Counted from the stretch's first letter, positions 21,125 to 52,913 are shown. The stretch: DNA of 64,000 nucleotides from Coriobacteriaceae bacterium (GCA_025993015.1 DAJPFV010000001.1:1608668-1672667); one strand, 5' to 3'. Notes: generated by a model from the sequence alone, not told the origin. Numbers and translations are program-made.

Positions 21125-22465
21125 CTAACTCCATTCAGCGATATCGATCATTCTTTCGAGGCGCCACGTTAGCGCCTCTTTTAGATATGGCAGCCTTGCC
21201 GTGAGCGCGTCGTTTCTGGAAAGAATCTCGATTGCCTCGTCAACGAAGCCTTCGAGTTTGTCGCCGTCAAACCAGCCCATGTCCTCGACGAGCAACATTT
21301 GTTTGGCGGGGCTTGAATGAAATTGTGCGCTGGTAAAACTGTGCTCTCCCGCCCTAAGCTCCTCTAGTGATATGTTGCACCAGAGCGATGAGCCCGAATC
21401 GAAGATGGGGGCAGGTCTGCAGGCTTGCGTGTTTACGTTTCGCACGAGGCCGAAGTTGCGCCAATGACGATCGTAGTTGGCAATGATGTCGTCACATACG
21501 ATCATGCGGTCAAGGGCATCCTTGACGCCTGTCACCCCGAGCTCCTCGCAGTTTGCTACATATCGCTCGTAGTCGGTTAGCCGTTCATCTGCGTTTGCGT
21601 GCTGGTTTACATAGAATGCAGGGACATACTCTTCTTCATCAGTTAAGAAGACATCGCATGTGCTCAGGGCGGAAGTGCCCGTGCCCTCGAGCGAGTAAGG
21701 CACATAATCGCAGGCGTTTAGAATGCGACGGTGGAGCGCGGTCGCCACCAGCTCGTTATAAGGTTCCTGGTCCAGGTGCGCTCCTGCCTTATGCAGAATT
21801 CGACGTTCGCCCTCGCACGTCCAGTACTTTTGAAGATTGCCGTCCGAGGTGTTATCGGGCTTTGCGGCAGCCGCTTTTCCCTCTGGGGCAAAGGGTGCAA
21901 TGGACAGTGAGACGTCATCAAAGGCGTTATTGAAGAAGTTGATATCCTCCCAGGTGAGACCGGAACCTTGGGGCCTAATCCAATACTGGTCGGATAAGGA
22001 GAGGCCGAGATTTCGCTGGACGAGTTCATCGGGAACATCGACTGCGGCTTCTGCAAGCAGGGAGGCTAGCCCAATGCGTGCGAGCGGGATACCGCGGCCG
22101 CGCCACCAGATGCGGAAGGAGTCTAGCGATATGGGGCTATTAGGGCCAAATACTCCAATAGGGGCGTGGGCGTAATCGATGTCGGCACCGATGTGGGTAA
22201 AGTCTTTTCGCGATGTGCTGTAGACCAGCTGAGCGACTTCGTACGTGCGGTTCATGAGGGTGAACGCGATCTCGCTCTTACCGTGGCCGCGGCGGGGACG
22301 TCCCCCCGTTTTGGTCACAGAGCGGAGTCGCGTGTCGACGCTGTCTTTGTCGATGAGCCATACACCAGAAGCCTTGCGGGCCTCAAGTGCTCCGTTTTTT
22401 ATGAGCTCCTGCACCCTGCGCGGAGTGATGCCGAGCAGCTCGGCGGCTTCTTTGGTAGTAAGCAT
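21125..22465 (-). CDS. HipA-like Ser/Thr kinase with fused N-terminal excisionase-type HTH (YjjJ/HipH-like architecture)
   Basis: N-terminus MLTTKEAAELLGITPRRVQELIKNGAL (HTH_17-like). C-terminus ANYDRHWRNFGLV...PIFDSGSSL matches the HipA_C catalytic motifs. The gene is visibly lower in GC than its neighbours. Confidence 0.72.
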   Translation of the reverse strand: MLTTKEAAELLGITPRRVQELIKNGALEARKASGVWLIDKDSVDTRLRSVTKTGGRPRRGHGKSEIAFTLMNRTYEVAQLVYSTSRKDFTHIGADIDYAHAPIGVFGPNSPISLDSFRIWWRGRGIPLARIGLASLLAEAAVDVPDELVQRNLGLSLSDQYWIRPQGSGLTWEDINFFNNAFDDVSLSIAPFAPEGKAAAAKPDNTSDGNLQKYWTCEGERRILHKAGAHLDQEPYNELVATALHRRILNACDYVPYSLEGTGTSALSTCDVFLTDEEEYVPAFYVNQHANADERLTDYERYVANCEELGVTGVKDALDRMIVCDDIIANYDRHWRNFGLVRNVNTQACRPAPIFDSGSSLWCNISLEELRAGEHSFTSAQFHSSPAKQMLLVEDMGWFDGDKLEGFVDEAIEILSRNDALTARLPYLKEALTWRLERMIDIAEWS

Positions 22466-22475
22466 CGCGAAACCC

Positions 22476-22536
22476 TTCGCCAGAACGAATAGTTTTATAT
22501 ATAGCAATTGTAATTAAAACTATTCGTTCTGGCGAA
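22476..22536. promoter_or_regulatory. Perfect 22-bp inverted repeat separated by a 17-bp AT-rich spacer, candidate autoregulatory operator of the HTH-HipA gene
   Basis: ttcgccagaacgaatagtttta (22476-22497) / taaaactattcgttctggcgaa (22515-22536), starting 11 nt upstream of the ATG. Confidence 0.45.
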
Positions 22537-22689: not shown

Positions 22690-22764
22690 GCCAGTGTGGC
22701 GCAACGGTAGCGCAACTGATTTGTAATCAGTGGGCTGCAGGTTCGATTCCTGTCACTGGCTCCA
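22690..22764 (+). tRNA. tRNA-Thr (anticodon TGT), CCA encoded
   Basis: Manual cloverleaf: acceptor gccagtg/cactggc, D arm gcgc-aacggta-gcgc, anticodon arm actga-ttTGTaa-tcagt, T arm gcagg-ttcgatt-cctgt. Confidence 0.85.
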
Positions 22765-44058: not shown

Positions 44059-44097
44059 TATAATCGCCTCCGCTCAAAATGATTGGAGACGTTATAT

Positions 44098-45294
44098 ATG
44101 AGTCAGGCAAGGCAAGATGGCATCACGCTCAAGCAGTGGCTCCCGCTTATCGGGCTCACCTGCTGCGCGTTCGTGTTCAACACGTCGGAGTTCATGCCCA
44201 TCGGTCTGCTGACCGACATCGCCGCATCGTTTTCGCTCACCGAGGCCCAAGCTGGCATCATGATCTCGGTCTATGCCTGGGGCGTCATGCTGCTGTCGTT
44301 GCCGCTCATGGTGTTCGCTTCGCGCTTTGAGTTCAAGCGGATGCTGCTCGGCGTGCTTGCCGTGTTCTCGCTGGGCCAGTTCCTGTCCGCCGTGGCGCCG
44401 ACCTATCCCATTCTGGTCTGCGCACGCCTGGTGGTTGCCTGCGCGCACGCCGTGTTCTGGTCGGTCGCCTCGATCATGGCGTCGCGTCTGGTTGACACGC
44501 GCCATGGGGCGCTCGCCATCAGCATGATCGCCACGGGCTCTTCCATCGCACAGATCTTCGGCCTGCCGCTCGGCCGCGCCATTGGCCTGGCCGTGGGCTG
44601 GCGTATGACGTTTGCCGTGGTTGGGGCCCTCTCTGCCGCTGCGGTGGTGTACCAGGCCACGGTGTTCCCCACCATGCCGGCGGGCGAGCGTTTTACGCTC
44701 AAGCAGCTGCCCGAGCTGCTCAAGAGCCCGTTCCTCATCGCTCTCTACGCCGTTACGGTGTTCATGGCGACCGGCTATTACGCGGGCTATAGCTATATCG
44801 AGCCTTTCCTGGCCCAGGTCGCGCATGTCGACGCAAGCGCTATCACTATGACGTTGACGGCGTTCGGCTGCTCCGGCCTGGTGGGCAGTTGGCTGTTCGG
44901 CCGCCTGTTCGACGGGCACCGTTTTCCGTTCCTTGCGATCACGCTCTCCGGAGTGCCGGTCGCCTTGCTGCTTATGGGATCTGTCGCGTCATCGCTCGCG
45001 GCGGTGCTTGCCGTCTGCGCGCTATGGGGCTGCTGCTCCACGGCCTTTAACGTGGCGTTTCAGGCCGAGCTCATCAAGTACACGCCGGTGGATTCGTCGG
45101 CCGTCGCCATGTCGATTTTCTCGGGCCTGTTTAACCTCGGTATTGGCACGGGTACCGCGATCGGCGGAGCCGTGGTTTCGGGTCCCGGTATCGCCTTGAT
45201 CGGCTACGCGGGCGGTGCGATCGCTGCCGTGGGCGTCATCCTCGCTATCACGGTGATGTTCCCGGCCATTCGTCGCGCAAAGCCTGTCGCCTAA
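44098..45294 (+). CDS. MFS transporter (sugar/drug efflux-like, 12 TM)
   Basis: 398 aa polytopic protein with the MFS loop motif (LVDTRHGALAISM...) and 12 predicted helices by eye. Confidence 0.8.
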   Translation: MSQARQDGITLKQWLPLIGLTCCAFVFNTSEFMPIGLLTDIAASFSLTEAQAGIMISVYAWGVMLLSLPLMVFASRFEFKRMLLGVLAVFSLGQFLSAVAPTYPILVCARLVVACAHAVFWSVASIMASRLVDTRHGALAISMIATGSSIAQIFGLPLGRAIGLAVGWRMTFAVVGALSAAAVVYQATVFPTMPAGERFTLKQLPELLKSPFLIALYAVTVFMATGYYAGYSYIEPFLAQVAHVDASAITMTLTAFGCSGLVGSWLFGRLFDGHRFPFLAITLSGVPVALLLMGSVASSLAAVLAVCALWGCCSTAFNVAFQAELIKYTPVDSSAVAMSIFSGLFNLGIGTGTAIGGAVVSGPGIALIGYAGGAIAAVGVILAITVMFPAIRRAKPVA

Positions 45295-45309
45295 CCACGT
45301 CCCCTCATC
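45238..45309 (+). repeat. Left copy of the 72-bp direct repeat flanking the island (functional 3' end of the MFS gene plus 15 nt)
   Basis: Aligns without gaps to 52704-52775 with 9 mismatches by my hand alignment. Confidence 0.85.
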
Positions 45310-45376
45310 AGTTGCGGTGAAATACGGACTGCTGGGCCCAATAAACCCGGCAAACAGTCCGCATTTCACCGCAACT
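45310..45376. repeat. 67-nt palindromic element, copy C
   Basis: agttgcggtgaaatacggactg ... cagtccgcatttcaccgcaact. Confidence 0.85.
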
Positions 45377-45440
45377 TAGAAAGGGACTGGGGTAGCTAAT
45401 TTGGGACGGGGCTTTTTTAGCTACCTCGCTGAGCATACGT

Positions 45441-45490
45441 AAAAGAGGCCGAGGCCGCTCCGGTGTGTGCTGGAGTGGCCTCGGTTTTGT
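45441..45490 (-). terminator. Long hairpin terminator at the 3' end of the island operon (bidirectional)
   Basis: aaaagaggccgaggccgctccgg ... ctggagtggcctcggtttt. Confidence 0.6.
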
Positions 45491-45507
45491 GTCTGCGTAT
45501 GATCGAC

Positions 45508-45876
45508 CTAGAGCTCGTCTTGGGGGACGACAGCCGTAAGTTGCTCGTTCTCAAATACCGCAGCAAGTCCGTGTTCGGGGTCAAAGCGATAGTTGCACAT
45601 GAGCGCTGCTTTGCGAGCATCATCGCTCCGAAGTACCACGATACTGGTCGGAATAACGTATCTAAAGATGTTTGTAATGGGGCCCTCGATCTGATCGCCG
45701 TCTCTTTCGAGACAATAATCTTCGATCGCTTCCTTGCTGTCCTCAACGGTATCCCAGCTTGCAAGCAGGGCGCCCTTTGCTTCCTTTTGAATGTCGAGGA
45801 CGCCTTGGTCCGAGTCACACTCGTAATAGACGGGGAGCGAGAAATCCCTGCCCCACAGATTCATGCCGTTAGTCAT
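45508..45876 (-). CDS. Small acidic protein, putative cognate immunity protein of the upstream nuclease
   Basis: The call rests on position only: it lies immediately 3' of the toxin gene and overlaps it (ATGACTAA). 122-126 aa, with no signal peptide or TM helix. The maximal ORF starts with TTG at 45888. Confidence 0.4.
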   Translation of the reverse strand: MTNGMNLWGRDFSLPVYYECDSDQGVLDIQKEAKGALLASWDTVEDSKEAIEDYCLERDGDQIEGPITNIFRYVIPTSIVVLRSDDARKAALMCNYRFDPEHGLAAVFENEQLTAVVPQDEL

Positions 45877-46558
45877 CGAAGCCGCCAATCTGATTCAGTA
45901 TGTTTTTGATTTCGCTTACGCCGCCGAGATGGCTGCACACCTTGTGAACTTCGGTCGGAACAAGAGAGCACGTCTTCATATCATTGTGTTCGTGCCAGGT
46001 GTACTCATTTACCTCGCGCCATTTCTTGACATCCTGGTGCGTCCAATCATCTTTGCCATCGCGTTGCTCAAGGTTCCAAGCTTTTGCGCATTCAGTGTCT
46101 GCCTTTTCATAGTTGCCGACAATGCGTTCGCCGTTCTCGCCCATCTGCGAAAGCCTATGCTGGCTCATGCCTTGTATGGTTACTTTCGCTTCAGAGATAG
46201 GGTTGAAGTCAGGAATTCCATCCTTGTAATTGATGCCCTCAAGACCTTTGTTTCGAAGAATCTCGCGGACCCTATCGGCTGTGGGAATAAACATCGATTC
46301 CCCTCGGTCACCCGACCATTTTCCGTTTGGATTCTCGATGCTCGGTGTACGGTCCAGCCTCTCCTTATAGCTCGAAGGATAATCGCACGATTCCACCGAG
46401 GGTCTAATCAATTTGTCGGGATCGATGGATTCGTTACGGCCGGCATTTTTAACCTCTGCCTTGGTTTCCTTTGATTCGGGGCCAATGAGTTTATCAGGAT
46501 TGAACCCAAGTTTATCGCCTAGCTTGGCCACGCCGCCTTTCATTTGCTTGAACTCCAT
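45869..46558 (-). CDS. HNH/EndoVII-fold nuclease toxin (WHH-like polymorphic-toxin domain) without a recognisable trafficking domain
   Basis: C-terminal KWSGDRGESMFIP...GIPDFNP...YTWHEHNDMKTCSLVPTEVHKVCSHLGG resembles the WHH/GH-E class of toxin nucleases. TAATG overlap with the ATPase gene. Confidence 0.6.
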   Translation of the reverse strand: MEFKQMKGGVAKLGDKLGFNPDKLIGPESKETKAEVKNAGRNESIDPDKLIRPSVESCDYPSSYKERLDRTPSIENPNGKWSGDRGESMFIPTADRVREILRNKGLEGINYKDGIPDFNPISEAKVTIQGMSQHRLSQMGENGERIVGNYEKADTECAKAWNLEQRDGKDDWTHQDVKKWREVNEYTWHEHNDMKTCSLVPTEVHKVCSHLGGVSEIKNILNQIGGFDD

Positions 46559-49500
46559 TAGCTCACCTCGCTATTCTCGTTCCAGTTGTGCCAATCGGAA
46601 TATGCTTGGGTATCTTGCATTTGCAGACACAAGACATCGGTCATGATGCCCTGGATGATGACCTGCCTGGTGCGGCTGTCGATATCGCGGTCGATTGAGG
46701 ACCTGAGTGCCGCGTCCGCCGCCATTGTCCATTGTTCGGCTTCATCGCTGCACTCGCGTTCGTCCTCGACCGCTTTGGCAACGTTGGGAAACAGTGTGCT
46801 CATTATGGGTCCCAGCTTGGTCATGCGCGGTTCGGCGGGTGGGTTTTGAACGGTGCGCAGGATCTTGACCTTTGTAGACGCGTCGATATGGAGGCGATCG
46901 AGCCGTTCGCGAATGCTGTGCAGCTCCGTCTTGGTTCCGATGCTGATTCCGTAGGCCAGCATGCGCGCTACGGCAAGGGCATCATCGCTCTGGTTGCTTG
47001 CGACATCGTCGATGGGGCGGCTGTATGCAAAGTGCGCGCCATCCTCTGCTTTGGCGATCTTGCAGAGCACCGGCTCAACCCAATCGTTTTGGTAAATGGC
47101 CGCAACGCCTTTAGGCAGGCGTGCCAGTTCGACGATCTGTTGGTCGTTGAGGTTGGCGGCGCGACCGGCGAGCTCGCGGTCCGAAAGATCGGGCAGGCGA
47201 TGGATGATCTTGGTATTTGTGTTGCGAATGGCTGCCATATCGAGAAGTCCGGGCGCCTGGTCGGCGATGATGAAGCCTTCGCCGTATGTACGCATCTCGG
47301 CGATGGCATTTGAGATCATCTCGACGCTCTTGCCTGTCAGGTCGCCGCTTTCCGAGCCTTGGCTGCTCGACGATCGCTTAAGCAGGTTGTGCGCCTCTTC
47401 AAGCACGGTCAGATGGCGAAGTGGCTGGTTCATGCCCTTTTTCTCGGCCATGCGATGTTCTTGAAGTTTGAGTACAAGAAGACCCATGAGTAGGGATTTT
47501 GTTTCGGCGGAGCCAATGCGCGATAGGTCGATGACTGTGTTGGCGTCAAAAAGCACGGTGGCGTCGACTTCGTTCGACGAAAGCATCATGCCGTTGAGCC
47601 CGTTGGTGAGTGAATTGAGACGTGTGAGCAGCGAACCCTTGTAGGCGCCCTTATTTTCGGCGTCGTACTCGCTGGAATCGAGAATCTCGCGGACGTTGCG
47701 GGCAACATCTGCAAAGCAAGGAAAGAGATCGGCTCCATATGGGTTATCAGAAGCGGCAAGGTCCCATCCACAGTCTTCGTATGACCTGGCGACGGCGTCT
47801 TTAAGGACGGCGGGCATGGCGGCGTACATGGGCCAGCAGACATTAAAGATCTCAGCGAGTCGGTCGAGGTGTTCCAGCACATGGATGCCGGACGGGAAGC
47901 TAAAAGGATTGATACGCAGGAGCGGCGTGAATTCTGGATTGGTTCCAAAGACGTTTACGTCTTCGCGGGCTCCATACACGTCCTTGTATTCGCCCTTGGC
48001 AGGTTCAATGACAAGGAAGTTGACTCGCTGATCGAGCGCTTGGTCGAGGATGCGACAGACGGTATTGGTCTTTCCTGCGCCGGTGCTGCCCGTAACAAAG
48101 GTGTGCGAGGCAAGTGAGTCCTTTGACAGGAACGTTTCGATGCGTTCCTCGCGATGCATATGGAAAACCTTGCCTATGCAAAGGCCCTGCTGAGGCTGCG
48201 TACCATCGAACGTAGAGACGTTGCGCCCAAAAGAAGCGCATTCGATAACGGGCAACCCTGGGACGGACTTCTTGGGAAAGTTGAGCGAATAGGCCAGCTC
48301 CTTGCCCGAAAGGGCAGTCGTTGCATCGACCGTTGCCGGATAGACCGAAAAGCTCGGATGTTGATCGAGCAGGGCGGGGGAGAGGGCAAAAGCAGGATGG
48401 CGCAAATCGCGAAGGTAGGAGCAGATTGCCGTGGCGTCGGCGCTTTGCTCTCCAAGGTCTCCGCGCCAGAGGTTTACTGCAGCCTGAGACATATAGGATT
48501 CTTTGCCCTGGGTGAGGGCGAGATAGGTGTGGGCAACGTTATTCGCGACGTTGTGGTCTTCTGCTAGCACGTAGGCGCAAAAGTCCCACATGCCGAGTGC
48601 CGAGGCAAGGTCGTAGCGCTTCATTTGCAACTCAAGTATTTCGAGCGCGTGTTGGATGGAGTAATTCTTGAACGTCTGCGTGATGCCTTCGTCGGCGCCG
48701 ATGGTAGCGGTGACCGTGCTTGAGCGTGCGAACGATCCGCCAAAGTTGGCACCTAGATTTACTGCCTGCGAAACACCGGAAGTCACGGAAGCTCCCTTAG
48801 AGACAGCCTTGCCAACACCGCTGGTGACGGCTTTGCCGAGCGTGTTGGATATGGCCTTGCCGGTAGATGAGCTTGTACCTGTTGCCGTGGACGTGGAGTG
48901 CGACGAACCCTCCGTGTGACTTGCGGATACGCCTAAGTCAACGCCTCCGCTCGAGGACTCATTCCTGCCGTCGGTGACCGTATCCGTGATGCTTTCGGTC
49001 GATGTGGACGAGTCGGTTACGCTCTCGTTGCTCGATTCCGAGGTCGACTCGTTTGTCGAGTCCGTTTCGTTGTAGTTTTGAGCAACAGCCTGATTATTTC
49101 CCACCTGTCTGCCGGCGCTCACACCTGCATTGATGCCAATCGTCGCGGACGATCCGATGGAGTCGTTCTGGTGATGGGTGTAGTTGGTCGTCCATGAGGC
49201 ATAAGGCGTTAGCAGTGAGTGGAGTTCGGCGAGGCGGAGTTTGCGCGATTCGATATCATGGATCGGGGTTGCGAGCAGCACGATAGTGTAGTCTTCGCTC
49301 GGCCTACCGGGCACAATGCCGTCGAGAACCTTCTCAATAGTTTGCGTGACGAACTTCTCGTTCTTTTCGGCTGGAATATTCGAAACGGCGGCAACCGAAG
49401 ACGGGCGTCGATTGTCTAGACACGGAATGGGACCGCGGTTGGCGGGCCCCACTTCGGAACCGGGGAAGTTGCCCCTCAAGGCATCCGACATGCGCCGGGA

Positions 49501-49989
49501 AAAATTATCGGCGTCGATGTTGTCGCGAGCATTGTCGCTATTGACGACTGCGAGAAATACCTCGGTGCTTGCGCTGGTTCGATTAAAGATCAGCGCAATG
49601 TTGCATTCTTCGTCAGAAAGAACGTCGTACACATTTACAAGCTTCTCGAGACTGTCCTCGTTGGGATCGACGATCCACTTCGTGATATTCATGAAGCGGA
49701 TGTTGTTGTCGGCGTTAAAGCCCATGGGGTATTCAATGGAGGGGTCAATCGGCGCGTAAACATTTCGCAGCTGCGGCAGATAGGCGTTGTGAAGCTCAAC
49801 GGCGGCAGTTGCCAAGAGCCGATTGGTGAGCTCGACAGCTTGCTCGTCTGCCGGATTCGGCTTTTCTGACAAGTATGCTGTTCGCTTTTGGTCGACCTCA
49901 TCGAGCTGGGAGCTGCTGAGTACCGAGACGGTTGCGACCGCGTTGCCGGCTTTATCGGCAGCGCGCATAATCGCGTTTTTGATGCCCAT
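46558..49989 (-). CDS. Large HerA/FtsK-superfamily P-loop ATPase with an unknown N-terminal region of about 590 aa and a Ser/Thr/Gly low-complexity insert
   Basis: HAS-barrel-like CIGKVFHMHREERIETF, followed by Walker A FVTGSTGAGKTNT, Walker B LTVLEEAHNLL, and IIADQAPGLLD...IIHRLPD. Confidence 0.75.
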   Translation of the reverse strand: MGIKNAIMRAADKAGNAVATVSVLSSSQLDEVDQKRTAYLSEKPNPADEQAVELTNRLLATAAVELHNAYLPQLRNVYAPIDPSIEYPMGFNADNNIRFMNITKWIVDPNEDSLEKLVNVYDVLSDEECNIALIFNRTSASTEVFLAVVNSDNARDNIDADNFSRRMSDALRGNFPGSEVGPANRGPIPCLDNRRPSSVAAVSNIPAEKNEKFVTQTIEKVLDGIVPGRPSEDYTIVLLATPIHDIESRKLRLAELHSLLTPYASWTTNYTHHQNDSIGSSATIGINAGVSAGRQVGNNQAVAQNYNETDSTNESTSESSNESVTDSSTSTESITDTVTDGRNESSSGGVDLGVSASHTEGSSHSTSTATGTSSSTGKAISNTLGKAVTSGVGKAVSKGASVTSGVSQAVNLGANFGGSFARSSTVTATIGADEGITQTFKNYSIQHALEILELQMKRYDLASALGMWDFCAYVLAEDHNVANNVAHTYLALTQGKESYMSQAAVNLWRGDLGEQSADATAICSYLRDLRHPAFALSPALLDQHPSFSVYPATVDATTALSGKELAYSLNFPKKSVPGLPVIECASFGRNVSTFDGTQPQQGLCIGKVFHMHREERIETFLSKDSLASHTFVTGSTGAGKTNTVCRILDQALDQRVNFLVIEPAKGEYKDVYGAREDVNVFGTNPEFTPLLRINPFSFPSGIHVLEHLDRLAEIFNVCWPMYAAMPAVLKDAVARSYEDCGWDLAASDNPYGADLFPCFADVARNVREILDSSEYDAENKGAYKGSLLTRLNSLTNGLNGMMLSSNEVDATVLFDANTVIDLSRIGSAETKSLLMGLLVLKLQEHRMAEKKGMNQPLRHLTVLEEAHNLLKRSSSSQGSESGDLTGKSVEMISNAIAEMRTYGEGFIIADQAPGLLDMAAIRNTNTKIIHRLPDLSDRELAGRAANLNDQQIVELARLPKGVAAIYQNDWVEPVLCKIAKAEDGAHFAYSRPIDDVASNQSDDALAVARMLAYGISIGTKTELHSIRERLDRLHIDASTKVKILRTVQNPPAEPRMTKLGPIMSTLFPNVAKAVEDERECSDEAEQWTMAADAALRSSIDRDIDSRTRQVIIQGIMTDVLCLQMQDTQAYSDWHNWNENSEVS

Positions 49990-49998
49990 ACGATCAGC

Positions 49999-52581
49999 CT
50001 ATTCCTTCCAATTAATGACGCGCGCAATGTATTCTTTTCGATTGTTGAGTGTCTCGAGTTTTGCCTCGAGAGCGTTGATCTCCGCGGTTTGCCTGTTGAT
50101 GTCTTCGACATGGCCATGGAGCACCGGGTTGTAGTCGGTGATATTGCTCGTAATTTGGCCAAGCAGCTCGTTGAGCCATTCGGTAAAGCCGTAGGTATGC
50201 TCGCGCTCTATTTCGGCGCGTGCTTCGCAGAAACACCGTGAGATTTCGCGGTTGAATTTATCTTCGACTTTCCTAAGCAAAAGCTTGTCGGATTTAAAGA
50301 TGACACGGTCCATGAGCTTCAGTTCGGTAAAGTCTGCCTTGCTGAAAATGGGGCCCTTTGTCTTATCGAGCGCGAGGCCACGATATTTAAGAATGATATC
50401 GCCGACCTCTTGGCGCTTTTCTTCGGAAAGAGGATTGTCACTGCTGGTAGCGATGCGATAGAGGGCATCGCGGCTATGCTCCGCACAATCCTTCCAATAG
50501 CTTTGCGACAGCTCATCGATGGTCTGAGCTATTTGCTCGGTACATTCGTCATAGTGATTGATGACCTCGTTAAAGAGTTGGTCAGCGGCATCTTTGTCGG
50601 CTGTTCTTTCGGCAGCCTTTGCATCGGATCTTTTGTGAAATGCATCGGTTATGTCATCGCAAAGACCCTTGCCAACGTCCGCAAGGCCACCCGTTGGACA
50701 AGGTTCACTATCCTTTTGCGCATTGACCTGGCTTCCCTTTATGGAGTCGCCGAGCCTATTGAAGAAGTTGGGTGCAATCGAATCAAATGCTTTCGCTGCC
50801 GCGATTGAGCGTTTTGAGTACTCGAGCCCCTCTCGCTTTTCCTCGGTAATGGCGTTTTGGCGTGCCTGGAGCGCATCAAGACTGGTCTCCCATTGTTTGG
50901 CCGAAACCCTCTTGTCGATTGTTTCCCTATAGCTTGCCGAAGCATCCTCCTTTGCATGCTCCTTGCAGGCTTCGAGCTGATCGATAAGAGCGCGCTTATC
51001 CTCTTCGAGTTCGGCTTCTCGCTGCGCTTTCTTTTGTTCAAGGTCGGTTTTCTTGTCGGCAATCTCTTCTTCGGTTATGCCGACAATTTCTTGCAGAAGT
51101 GATTCCGACCTGCTGCATTTGTTATATGCGGAGTACCGTTCGGCAAACAGGCGTATTTCGTTCTCGATGCAAAAGAGTCCGCTATTGGCAAGAAGGAGGT
51201 CCTTGCAAGCCTCGGATTCGCGATTGGTTCTGCGCGAGATCTGTCCCGGAAGGATATCGTAACGGTAGAGCGTTTTGTAGAAGCGGCTTGTCGGGTCGGT
51301 GTATTTACGCTGCTGGTCTTCGAATCTTTCGGCATAGTTGTCGCTTATAAACTCGCCGGAGTTCTTTGAGCCTAGGCCGAGGATGGAAGAAACAAAGTAG
51401 ATACCTTGACCATAGAGCCTGGACGGAATGAACTGGCGCATGATGTCCGAGACTCGTTCGTCGTCAAACCCGCCTTTGGGAAGGTCGGCGGAATCCGCCT
51501 TGTTGACTACGATCATGGCAAAGCGTTCATCGATTGCGGGGATCTCCTTTATTTCGTTGGAGAGGTTCTCGTTGTCTTTCGTGTCGAGTGTGGTGTACTC
51601 GGCAACGAAAATGGGAAGACCGTTCGAGAGGCCTTCCATGGCTTGTTTGAGCACTCGGGCGTGATCGACGTTGGAGGCAGAGTTTGACCCCGGGGTGTCA
51701 AAGATGACAAACTCCCTGTCGTGAGGCCATGGATCGGTATCGCTAAAGGGCACTTCGATTCTGATCAGATCGGAGATGGTCCGGTCGTCTTCATCGGCAT
51801 GGTATGAGTTAAGAACCTTGAGGGCGCTGTTCATATGAGAGGCCATGCCGGGCATGGAGTCGGCGACTTTGGCCGCGATCTTGTCGTATAGGGGCTCCCC
51901 CACAAGCTCTTTGTTTTCCATGAGGCCATCAAGATCAAAGCGCAGCAAGAACCGCCTGCTGCCACAGGAGAATTGAACCATCGCGCGATCTCGGTCTTTT
52001 GAACGTTTGATTTGAAATATGCGGGCCGTTACAGGCTCGTCGCCGCTGGGAAGGATCTCCATGCCAATGAGGGCGTTGATGAGCGTCGATTTGCCTGCAC
52101 TATAGTTGCCGAGCACACACAGCGGGATGATGTCGCTCGAGACATCGGTGAACTTCCTAATTTGCTCAGAGACTTTTGTTCGCTCGGAGACTGCTTCGTC
52201 TACAAGCCCCTGGATTTCTCTGAAGACTTCGACAATTTCCGGCAAGACGTCACGGGCGTTTGATAGATAGCGCTCGTCTCGTATGACCTCGTATGTATTG
52301 GCACGTGGCCCTTCGGTGCAGATGGCGAGCAACTCCTGCCATTCGTCGTCTGCTCCTTCAAAATGCAATTCAATTCTGTCGCCACCACCAAACTCTTTGG
52401 CGAGGATGTCGATGATCTCTTCGGCCTTAAAGGGGAAGAAACCATTAACGATCTTCGTGCTATGGAGCGCGCTATTGGGATTTGTAGATGTCGTTATTTC
52501 TTGCCAGCCGTTATCCCATCGGAAGAACCGGACAATTTCTTGATATGGATTGCTGACGATCTTGATTTTAATGTCTGCCAT
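49999..52581 (-). CDS. Dynamin-family large GTPase (bacterial dynamin-like protein) with an N-terminal extra domain and a long helical C-terminus
   Basis: G1 GNYSAGKST, G3 IFDTPGS, G4 VVNKAD. The C-terminal roughly 400 aa are rich in heptad-like charged helices. There is a 9-nt gap to the ATPase gene. Confidence 0.75.
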   Translation of the reverse strand: MADIKIKIVSNPYQEIVRFFRWDNGWQEITTSTNPNSALHSTKIVNGFFPFKAEEIIDILAKEFGGGDRIELHFEGADDEWQELLAICTEGPRANTYEVIRDERYLSNARDVLPEIVEVFREIQGLVDEAVSERTKVSEQIRKFTDVSSDIIPLCVLGNYSAGKSTLINALIGMEILPSGDEPVTARIFQIKRSKDRDRAMVQFSCGSRRFLLRFDLDGLMENKELVGEPLYDKIAAKVADSMPGMASHMNSALKVLNSYHADEDDRTISDLIRIEVPFSDTDPWPHDREFVIFDTPGSNSASNVDHARVLKQAMEGLSNGLPIFVAEYTTLDTKDNENLSNEIKEIPAIDERFAMIVVNKADSADLPKGGFDDERVSDIMRQFIPSRLYGQGIYFVSSILGLGSKNSGEFISDNYAERFEDQQRKYTDPTSRFYKTLYRYDILPGQISRRTNRESEACKDLLLANSGLFCIENEIRLFAERYSAYNKCSRSESLLQEIVGITEEEIADKKTDLEQKKAQREAELEEDKRALIDQLEACKEHAKEDASASYRETIDKRVSAKQWETSLDALQARQNAITEEKREGLEYSKRSIAAAKAFDSIAPNFFNRLGDSIKGSQVNAQKDSEPCPTGGLADVGKGLCDDITDAFHKRSDAKAAERTADKDAADQLFNEVINHYDECTEQIAQTIDELSQSYWKDCAEHSRDALYRIATSSDNPLSEEKRQEVGDIILKYRGLALDKTKGPIFSKADFTELKLMDRVIFKSDKLLLRKVEDKFNREISRCFCEARAEIEREHTYGFTEWLNELLGQITSNITDYNPVLHGHVEDINRQTAEINALEAKLETLNNRKEYIARVINWKE

Positions 52582-52703
52582 CGTTCAACTACCTTTAGTA
52601 GATCAGGTGCGGGAATATGCCGCCTTTATCATAGGGTAGCCGCCCGTGCGGACACCCCTCTATTCGCTCGGCGGCATCTCGGCAGTACCATTTATTTGGC
52701 AAG

Positions 52704-52760
52704 ATCCTCGCCATCGCCGTAATGTTCCCGGCCATACGCCGCGCAAAGCCCGTCGCCTAA
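52704..52760 (+). pseudogene. Orphan duplicate of the last 18 codons plus stop of the MFS gene (right island boundary)
   Basis: Translates to ILAIAVMFPAIRRAKPVA*, compared with ILAITVMFPAIRRAKPVA* at the real gene end. There is no upstream reading frame. Confidence 0.8.
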
Positions 52761-52775
52761 TCACGTCCCCTTATC

Positions 52776-52842
52776 AGTTGCGGTGGAATAGTTCCTGTTT
52801 AAGGCCTCTGAAGGCCCAGGCAGGAACTATTCCACCGCAACT
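52776..52842. repeat. 67-nt palindromic element, copy D
   Basis: agttgcggtggaatagttcctg ... caggaactattccaccgcaact. Confidence 0.85.
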
Positions 52843-52913
52843 TATTTTGGGGGAGAGGATACAAGCCGGGCATACAATGGATGTCGTTGTGTTGAGCTTA
52901 TCGGGAGGTTGCT

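Follow-up and report, generated by a model that had tools for sequence, protein, structure and literature searches.

A compact operon of four genes was analyzed in a 64,000-nucleotide (nt) stretch of Collinsella aerofaciens DNA; this whole stretch is called the window, and all positions are counted in it. The genes encode a dynamin-like GTPase (gene 1), a HerA-clade P-loop ATPase (gene 2), a nuclease toxin (gene 3), and an acidic DUF6985 protein (gene 4). Judged by its relatives in other genomes, the block is an instance of a polymorphic-toxin system built from modules, i.e., an engine composed of the GTPase and the ATPase, and a cassette composed of the toxin and its immunity protein. On balance, we lean towards an engine that would recognize leader-tagged toxins and export or deliver them to competitors. 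A preliminary description of the same DNA had proposed a coupled conflict operon located on an island, and this proposal was upheld.

Conserved engine and variable cassette

Loci with the ATPase family were collected by a one-genome-per-species scan. The scan gave at least 579 loci, of which the best 80 were analyzed. Together with 80 loci of an extended type from metagenomes, 160 related loci were compared. For the ATPase family, 2406 representative sequences, each standing for a cluster at 50% identity, were found at E ≤ 1e-30. A plain listing of ATPase homologs was swamped by Collinsella sequences at 96–98% identity, so the search of representatives was used for diversity.

The hosts of the best 80 loci were Collinsella, Bifidobacterium ruminantium, Slackia, Olsenella, several Streptococcus, Lachnospiraceae, Ruminococcus, Carnobacterium, and others. 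The carriers include groups abundant in the human gut and mouth, such as Collinsella, Streptococcus sanguinis, S. salivarius, Lachnospiraceae, and Ruminococcus. The engine is spread over Actinomycetota, Bacillota, and some diderms. A dynamin homolog was placed directly upstream of the ATPase in 74 of the 77 informative genome loci, i.e., the GTPase–ATPase neighborhood is conserved. Because the same gene order recurs in 160 loci and many genera, the arrangement is far beyond chance. No conserved gene was found upstream of the dynamin in the compact type, to which the window operon belongs.

In three loci (L065, L068, and L085), the ATPase and the cassette were kept and the dynamin was replaced by other partners. 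L085 has three other P-loop proteins, of 533, 356, and 398 amino acids (aa), along with a WYL regulator; L065 and L068 have proteins that lack a P-loop, with lengths of about 500 and about 220 aa. A viral origin of the system was rejected, as only 13 relatives were found among 2.9 million viral contigs.

Downstream of the ATPase in the genome loci, a gene for a protein of about 170–290 aa and then one for a protein of about 120–145 aa were always found, and their sequences differed among loci. The toxins were 170–345 aa long in most loci; at the N-terminus they have a disordered leader, in which a short motif is repeated, and at the C-terminus the toxin domain. Among 59 non-redundant gene 3 proteins, Pfam assigned 24 to Colicin-DNase/WHH, 10 to Endonuclea_NS_2, four to LHH, two to HNH, and one each to Ntox15 and the DUF6782 metallopeptidase. 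The 55 gene 4 proteins included DUF6985 (16), SUKH families (10), YezG-like (9), PoNi (2), and Tdi1 (1). SUKH, YezG, PoNi, and Tdi1 are families named as immunity proteins of secreted interbacterial toxins.

When 60 loci were clustered, nine clusters of toxin C-termini paired near one-to-one with twelve clusters of gene 4, i.e., genes 3 and 4 are exchanged together as a cassette. The N-terminal leaders fell into two large clusters, each joined to four or five toxin clusters. About one-fifth of the loci had two full cassettes; the additional one often encoded a HExxH metallopeptidase and a partner of 97 aa, and its toxin had the same leader type as the first. The preliminary description had named the nuclease as the effector in one of its hypotheses. 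It is not a fixed effector, since at least nine toxin types are interchangeable at its place.

The defining pattern of polymorphic toxins is a constant trafficking region, a variable toxin, and a cognate immunity protein (Zhang et al. 2012, PMC3482391; PMC3113570). In the loci compared, a common N-terminal region was joined to diverse C-terminal toxin domains. The immunity gene lay directly downstream and co-varied with the toxin domain, and the same pairs recurred in the extended type.

A pattern was also noted at the far ends of the toxins. In 22 of 58 non-redundant gene 3 toxins (from L007 to L086), GG or GxG was found within the last nine residues, against a background of 6%. Examples are GGFDD, GGEFDE, MGGEFSE (metallopeptidase), and LLGGEL (HNH). 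This ending may be a second, C-terminal signal common to unrelated toxin folds.

Leader types and the ATPase tail

Two leader types were recognized. The first carries one to three copies of F-[DN]-P-D-K-[RL]-[IV] at the N-terminus, with unrelated C-terminal domains behind. The second is defined by NFKNIKPE..MT..EA..FW.

The leader type was matched by the C-terminal tail of the ATPase. In 44 loci, the nearest neighbor of each tail had the same leader type in 44 of 44 cases, and tail identity was 0.33 among loci of one leader type but 0.13 when the types differed. In BLAST clustering, two tail clusters corresponded to two leader clusters with zero mixed cases, and the two tail versions could not be aligned to each other. 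The other parts of the ATPase, i.e., the N-domain, middle region, and core, showed no correlation with leader type; the tail alone did. The N-domain predicted the leader type in 19 of 43 loci and the middle region in 18 of 44. The core predicted it in 34 of 44, yet in the core, as in the other regions apart from the tail, the ratio of within-type to between-type identity was 1.0. We read the tail, on these sequence comparisons, as a putative leader receptor. The pairing is a directly testable recognition code, useful whether the system delivers toxins or defends its host.

One metagenome-assembled genome, Clostridia bacterium SUG1651, carried two engines at separate loci (L031 and L039), which were of different tail and leader kinds.

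Nuclease toxin and DUF6985 immunity protein

The gene 3 protein consists, according to profile and alignment matches, of an N-terminal leader and a WHH/colicin-DNase (His-Me finger) nuclease domain, here called the WHE clade. Its Pfam scores were 49.4 bits for WHH (E 3.8e-13) and 50 bits for Colicin-DNase (E 5.3e-13), each with a cutoff of 25; the matches of all four window proteins exceeded the curated Pfam cutoffs. The Rhs toxin 8bd1 in the PDB was matched at 4.7e-6. The two motif copies in the window leader read FNPDKLI and IDPDKLI, and between Collinsella strains the leader diverges faster than the nuclease domain. Homologs of the nuclease domain are nearly all stand-alone proteins of 190–220 aa, and the two with inspectable context were both placed behind such ATPases.

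The window protein was aligned with 22 diverse relatives and with 8bd1. All clade-invariant residues were present in it, i.e., [W/F]-H-E, D, T, L-V-P, I-H, and H-x-G-G. The second His of the canonical WHH triad is Glu in every clade member aligned, with W/F-H-E in the window protein and in all 23 diverse relatives. This His has been proposed as the water activator (PMC3113570). As Glu is found throughout the clade and the downstream D, H, and H-x-G-G are invariant, WHE is a conserved variant and not a decayed site. The window toxin domain is a predicted WHE-type His-Me-finger DNase. The earlier label of a WHH-like nuclease agrees with the profiles and needs correction in the canonical triad, W-H-H, which is W-H-E across the clade.

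The gene 4 protein matched DUF6985 with 32.7 bits (cutoff 24.5, E 1.3e-7), and a sequence search of the PDB with it gave nothing significant. DUF6985-type genes were found downstream of WHE-clade nucleases in 15 compact loci (toxin cluster 0 with immunity cluster 0) and, in extended loci, behind WHE nucleases with 10 proteins. By this association, DUF6985 is likely an immunity family for WHE-clade nucleases.

Altered copies of the nuclease were seen in a few relatives. In an uncultured Collinsella (MGYG-HGUT-01203, L017:13462-14151), the nuclease reads WHEDND...EVNK, and the window protein reads WHEHND...EVHK. The EVNK change hits a clade-invariant His, the other altered His is at a variable position, and the immunity gene is intact; this toxin may have been inactivated. 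In two gut metagenome contigs (L186:10697-11527 and L187:6228-7058), the nuclease stop codon was lost. The product is 276 aa long with a 42-aa out-of-frame tail, and the immunity open reading frame (ORF) is still open.

Structure of the engine proteins

The GTPase matched Pfam Dynamin_N with 66.2 bits (cutoff 27, E 4.7e-18). The motifs reported earlier, i.e., G1 GNYSAGKST, G3 DTPG, and G4 NKAD, were all present, and G158, S161, G163, K164, and S165 were invariant among 33 homologs. An AlphaFold2 (AF2) model, built with database homologs, reached a mean predicted local distance difference test (pLDDT) score of 81.6. In Foldseek, the model gave full-length matches to Nostoc BDLP (6e-12), SynDLP, IniA, Campylobacter DLP1/2, and LeoA. 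G1–G4 motifs, a Dynamin_N match above threshold, and a GTPase domain with a helical stalk, i.e., the features of the dynamin superfamily, were all found. By its modeled fold, the protein is a complete bacterial dynamin-like protein of the membrane-remodeling kind. The roles of bacterial dynamins are still poorly understood.

The ATPase matched DUF87/HerA in Pfam with 43.6 bits (cutoff 23.2, E 5e-11), and FtsK_SpoIIIE with 17.8 bits, which is under the cutoff of 24. HerA entries were found in a profile search of the PDB. Walker A (GSTGAGKT) and Walker B (VLEEAH) motifs were located as described before, and G634, T636, G637, G639, and K640 were invariant among 25 homologs. The AF2 model (pLDDT 73) has four parts, i.e., an N-terminal alpha/beta domain, a disordered loop, a barrel with the P-loop core, and a C-terminal helical bundle (aa 996–1139). 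The best Foldseek match was HerA 4d2i (1.9e-13), followed by HerA-NurA, SIR2-HerA, DUF4297-HerA, DndH-C, VirB4, and TrwB. By its modeled fold, the ATPase is of the HerA clade and is not FtsK- or EssC-like. Of the former label "HerA/FtsK-type", only the first half agrees with fold and profile.

The disordered loop of 167 aa has a pLDDT of about 23, no secondary structure, and a composition rich in Ser (35), Thr (23), and Gly (22). Ser/Thr protein-kinase-like ORFs were seen 1.6–3 kb upstream of the dynamin in two groups of three loci each (L023, L026, L035, and L055, L062, L066). A link between these ORFs and the Ser/Thr-rich loop is conceivable. The NCBIfam model NF033849 ("serine-rich protein") matched residues 268–979 of the ATPase with 111 bits, below its cutoff of 650; proteins annotated with it may be the same kind of engine ATPase.

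Extended type

The extended type was first found through nuclease homologs, in Pseudomonadaceae bacterium T75 (L100/L101) and Lachnospira pectinoschiza (L102/L103). Its gene order is WYL regulator, short dynamin (about 430–460 aa), long dynamin (about 755–790 aa), one or two small proteins, ATPase, WHE nuclease, and DUF6985. A metagenome scan gave 80 further loci of this order (L104–L183). Nearly all of those with sequence upstream of the ATPase had dynamin genes there, and about nine showed no dynamin match (e.g., L157–L160, L162, L164, L165, L167, and L173). The toxin and immunity pools are the same as in the compact type. The WYL regulator leads many of the loci and was matched by PADLOC WYL models at 3.7e-26.

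The small proteins of this type are tail-anchored, with Kyte-Doolittle (KD) values of 2.4–2.8, and the ATPase loop holds a hydrophobic Gly-rich segment (KD 1.6–1.9). It follows that at least the extended engine works at the membrane. Tandem systems are suggested by L131 and L139, where the extended system directly precedes another large dynamin gene, of 868 aa in L131 and truncated at the end of the contig in L139.

Operon layout and genomic island

All four ORFs were present on the minus strand as previously reported, with the coupling junctions claimed for them, i.e., a 9-nt gap, a TAATG overlap, and a ATGACTAA overlap in gene order. The size of gene 4, given earlier as roughly 125 aa, was close to the actual value. 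Its acidic character was also confirmed (D+E 24, K+R 10). The coordinates of all features are collected in Table 1.

Table 1. Coordinates of the operon, its motifs and domains, and the borders of the island in the window.
Feature	Position (nt)	Strand	Remark
Gene 1, dynamin-like GTPase	49999..52581	-	860 aa
GTPase architecture	49999..52581	-	Extra N-terminal alpha/beta domain (aa 1-105), GTPase domain, long helical stalk
GTPase G1/P-loop GNYSAGKST, aa 158-166	52084..52110	-	Translation
Gene 2, HerA-clade P-loop ATPase	46558..49989	-	1143 aa
Walker A GSTGAGKT, aa 634-641	48067..48090	-	Translation
Disordered Ser/Thr/Gly/Ala/Val/Asn-rich loop, 167 aa (aa 270-436)	48682..49182	-	Inserted in a beta-hairpin of the N-terminal domain
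ATPase C-terminal helical tail, aa 996-1143	46561..47004	-	Helical bundle in the AF2 model; predicted leader-recognition module
Gene 3, nuclease toxin	45869..46558	-	229 aa
Toxin leader, about aa 1-55, two copies of F/I-[ND]-P-D-K-L-I	46394..46558	-	Copies at 46484-46504 and 46406-46426
Gene 4, acidic DUF6985 protein, likely immunity protein	45508..45876	-	122 aa; ATG at 45876
Terminator-like hairpin 3' of gene 4 (weak call)	45441..45484	-	CCGAGGCC...GGCCTCGG then CCTCTTTT; from the sequence itself
Inserted island, four-gene operon with short flanks	45396..52797	-	7.4 kb; from Logan contig, GC content, and insertion site
Left bounding direct repeat, MFS transporter gene 3' end and hairpin	45238..45395	.	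D1, D11, inverted repeat I1
Right direct repeat, orphan copy of MFS 3' end and hairpin	52704..52845	.	D1, D11, inverted repeat I3
MFS_1 gene	44083-45294		Source of the bounding repeat

The limits of the island were drawn from a Logan metagenome contig of 7409 bp, which aligned end to end with window positions 45396–52797 at 98% identity. Guanine-cytosine (GC) content was 0.50–0.57 over 45–53 kb and 0.59–0.63 in the flanks. The same insertion site was seen in human-gut Collinsella contigs, with alpha-amylase and UDG genes on one side and MFS and FeoB genes on the other. The flanking genes are of housekeeping type, i.e., FeoB, MFS, alpha-amylase, UDG, aminotransferase, ribosomal proteins, EF-Tu, and tRNAs. 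The bounding repeat is a duplicate of the MFS gene's 3' end together with its terminator hairpin. Its core, D1, is 87 nt long (45238–45324 and 52704–52790, 89% identity, spacing 7466), and with the hairpins it extends to about 140 nt as an imperfect repeat. The arms of inverted repeat I3 are 25 nt long and 96% complementary. Base composition, D1, and flanking genes thus agree with the AT-richer, repeat-bounded island described before. No integrase is encoded on the island, which sits between these imperfect repeats. The ATPase gene is 100% identical in NZ_JADNOH010000085.1.

The island was also seen as a separate contig of about 7.4 kb in dozens of Logan and ENA assemblies, many of them from human gut. 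These stand-alone contigs suggest that strains with and without the island coexist. No exact run common to both repeat copies exceeds 14 nt. For this reason, mixed strains (with the island, without it, or with other flanks) are a likelier cause of the contig breaks than repeat collapse.

The consensus scan for promoters and terminators gave a result no better than shuffled sequence. The hairpin downstream of gene 4 is a weak call, because the scan did not list it. Elsewhere in the window, a 460-aa protein with an N-terminal HTH_17 domain (excisionase-type) is encoded at 21125–22507 on the minus strand, in a stretch with GC content of 0.53–0.55. It adjoins a tRNA cluster (tRNA-Thr, 22690–22764) and may be a remnant of another mobile element.

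Proposed function and alternative explanations

In the proposed mechanism, the C-terminal helical tail of the ATPase would bind the toxin leader. The ring of this hexamer-type ATPase, driven by ATP, would pull the toxin off its immunity protein and hand it on, presumably by threading. The dynamin, driven by GTP, would reshape the cytoplasmic membrane, whether by scission of vesicles, by fusion, or by a transient opening. The toxin would then leave the cell and reach competitors without the immunity gene, and the immunity protein, DUF6985 here, would protect the producer and its kin. A broader proposal, which we hold tentatively and stop just short of favoring, is that the GTPase and the ATPase form an unrecognized protein secretion or delivery system in bacteria of the gut and mouth, in which the tail reads the leader and dynamin remodeling, with no fixed channel, carries small toxins out of one cell and into competing ones. 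The preliminary description had left two hypotheses side by side. Delivery with kin-protecting immunity is the better fit, because of the interbacterial-type immunity families, the shared leaders, and the arrays of several cassettes, and abortive infection is kept as its main rival. Delivery is further supported by the membrane features of the extended type, by the membrane-remodeling dynamin fold of the GTPase, and by the match between ATPase tail and leader type.

Several findings weigh against delivery. No hydrophobic segment or signal peptide was found in any of the four window proteins, which are of the compact type, and these proteins therefore offer no evident route through membrane and wall. 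The soluble core is also found in diderms, e.g., Pseudomonadaceae L100/L101, where an exporter made of two proteins is difficult to envisage. The toxins carry no receptor-binding or translocation domain. The extended type is headed by a WYL regulator, and its Lachnospira loci adjoin type III CRISPR-Cas and AAA_15/PDDEXK_2 genes. A few compact loci adjoin PglZ, DrmD, or ResIII genes, and anti-phage HerA complexes are among the ATPase's nearest relatives of solved structure. Orphan immunity genes would favor an interbacterial role; none was found within 10 kb of any locus, which is therefore uninformative. As tail and leader are adjacent on the DNA, their pairing possibly reflects joint recombination instead of binding. 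Against such recombination, the more distant second-cassette toxins also match the tail type.

Much of this evidence would suit abortive infection or another anti-phage function, an explanation that we consider rather unlikely. A toxin–immunity pair would stay inactive inside the cell until phage infection, damaged DNA, or a perturbed membrane is detected. The ATPase would then grip the leader and strip off the immunity protein, the nuclease would destroy the DNA of the infected cell, and the dynamin would serve as a sensor or membrane stabilizer. The WYL regulator and the CRISPR-Cas neighbors of the extended type, the occurrence in both monoderms and diderms, the compact type without a membrane-spanning part, and the lack of orphan immunity arrays within 10 kb all agree with it. 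Besides, two-dynamin operons (Eleos) are proven defenses, and the SIR2-HerA and DUF4297-HerA defenses are built on HerA as their scaffold. In a survey of 30 compact loci, PglZ, DrmD, ResIII, and HicB were near a few, but the neighbors were mostly housekeeping genes, as they are around the window island; the survey had no background rate and is not decisive. Against abortive infection, the immunity families (SUKH, YezG, PoNi, and Tdi1) and toxin families (WHH, LHH, Ntox15, and colicin-DNase) are of the secreted interbacterial type. To our knowledge, defense effectors normally have no dedicated immunity protein. Two-cassette arrays are common, membrane proteins with tail anchors and an ATPase loop with a hydrophobic part mark the extended type, and no PADLOC system model fits.

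Two further explanations leave the engine out of toxin handling or make the nuclease its working part. Toxin/immunity pairs can serve as addiction modules, and the pair might only stabilize an island that has no integrase and lies between imperfect repeats. The dynamin and the ATPase would then do an unrelated job such as membrane repair, as B. subtilis DynA protects membranes (cited in the Eleos paper). This is very improbable: dynamin, ATPase, toxin, and immunity genes keep this order across phyla, their stop and start codons overlapping, while the cassette is exchanged, toxins of unrelated folds retain the pairing of leader with ATPase tail, and the toxin homologs, nearly all of 190–220 aa, stood behind such ATPases in both inspectable cases. 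Even less credence is given to a DNA-processing machine like HerA-NurA, serving repair or the uptake of DNA, in which the nuclease would be the working subunit. In structure, the ATPase core is most closely related to HerA-NurA, most cassettes encode DNases, and NCBIfam CedD, a DNA-translocating ATPase, gave a weak match of 71 bits. However, the HerA and CedD models scored 33–71 bits, far under their cutoffs of 600–970. The nucleases are non-specific DNases of toxin type and of several unrelated folds, some are swapped for metallopeptidases, and every one is paired with an inhibitor-type immunity protein.

The classification of polymorphic toxin systems follows the machinery by which the toxin is handled, i.e., the type V, type VI, and type VII secretion systems and others. 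The constant part found here, a dynamin-like GTPase with a HerA-clade ATPase, was not tied to toxins in any source searched. If export is true, it would mean a new secretion principle, a concrete function for bacterial dynamins, and a new factor in strain competition within microbiomes. If defense is true, this would be the first system that gates classical toxin/immunity cassettes by nucleoside triphosphatases (NTPases). DUF6985 gains a likely immunity role in either case.

Comparison with known systems

When the four proteins were searched with PADLOC, Pfam, and NCBIfam, no named system was found, and only weak partial matches to LeoA/LeoBC, HerA, and mad8 were obtained. No PADLOC model matched gene 3 or 4. 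The earlier statement that the operon does not match Eleos, SIR2-HerA, or DUF4297-HerA was thus borne out, and extends to every other PADLOC model. In a literature search, whose coverage left out most subscription journals, no bacterial report linking dynamin with HerA, DUF87, or polymorphic toxins was found. Combinations of dynamin with interbacterial or anti-phage terms gave nothing relevant, and DUF6985 appeared in no paper.

Mycobacterial IniA/IniC dynamins are required for vesicle release, and IniA is a fold match of the GTPase. In myxobacteria, polymorphic SitA toxins are delivered by outer-membrane exchange (PMC5562445). These are precedents for toxin travel by membrane fusion or dynamin-driven vesicles. 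The present system shares no homology with TraAB/SitA, and the comparison is one of analogy.

The ATPase resembles those of SIR2-HerA (Nezha), DUF4297-HerA, and HerA-NurA in that a HerA-fold core is coupled to an effector enzyme encoded by a neighbor. The operon encodes no SIR2, DUF4297, or NurA partner. Unlike those complexes, the present ATPase has an extra N-terminal region of 600 aa with a disordered loop, and a leader-matched tail; its effectors are polymorphic and accompanied by immunity proteins. NCBIfam HerA_antiphage scored 33.6 bits against a cutoff of 800. Of the MADS models, mad8 matched the ATPase core alone (62 bits), and no other mad model matched the operon.

Nuclease colicins likewise combine a His-Me-finger DNase with an acidic immunity protein whose gene is in tight linkage, and their operons hold dedicated release functions. 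A stress-type regulator is also shared, i.e., WYL in the extended variant. In contrast to colicins, the present toxins have no receptor-binding or translocation domain and no lysis gene, and their release would need the NTPases. The present system is encoded on the chromosome and is found in Gram-positive bacteria as well.

Eleos, or LeoABC, also places dynamin-like GTPases in a conflict setting. Its paired dynamin-like proteins are anti-phage and were earlier tied to toxin release in enterotoxigenic Escherichia coli. LeoA was a fold match of the GTPase, and the extended type likewise has two consecutive dynamin genes. However, Eleos is a stand-alone pair of two genes without ATPase, toxin, or immunity gene. 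PADLOC scored the window GTPase at 36.5 bits over 130 aa for LeoBC and 20.3 bits for LeoA. The Leo models reached at most 31 bits on the extended-type dynamins, and LeoA/LeoBC matches overall ranged from 7.8e-10 to 1.7e-3.

[quoted passage not shown] There, too, a gene for an ATPase of the FtsK/HerA superfamily stands beside small toxins in Gram-positive hosts. The toxin N-terminus sets the route, the C-terminus is swappable, and the cognate immunity proteins include YezG and SUKH. The differences lie in the machine. The present ATPase has one HerA-type P-loop domain and no transmembrane segment, whereas EssC has several P-loops and is membrane-anchored. No WXG100 or LXG domain was among the Pfam families of the 59 toxins, and no EsaA/EssA/EssB-like partner was among the 25 commonest Pfam families of 144 neighboring ORFs. 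A dynamin-like GTPase is the obligatory partner in the present system. In T7SSb, the C-terminal portion of EssC differs according to the effectors encoded downstream (PMC10327511). The pairing of ATPase tail and toxin leader parallels this variation. We rate the toxin/immunity logic as already known, and the engine, the leaders, and the tail–leader code as apparently new.

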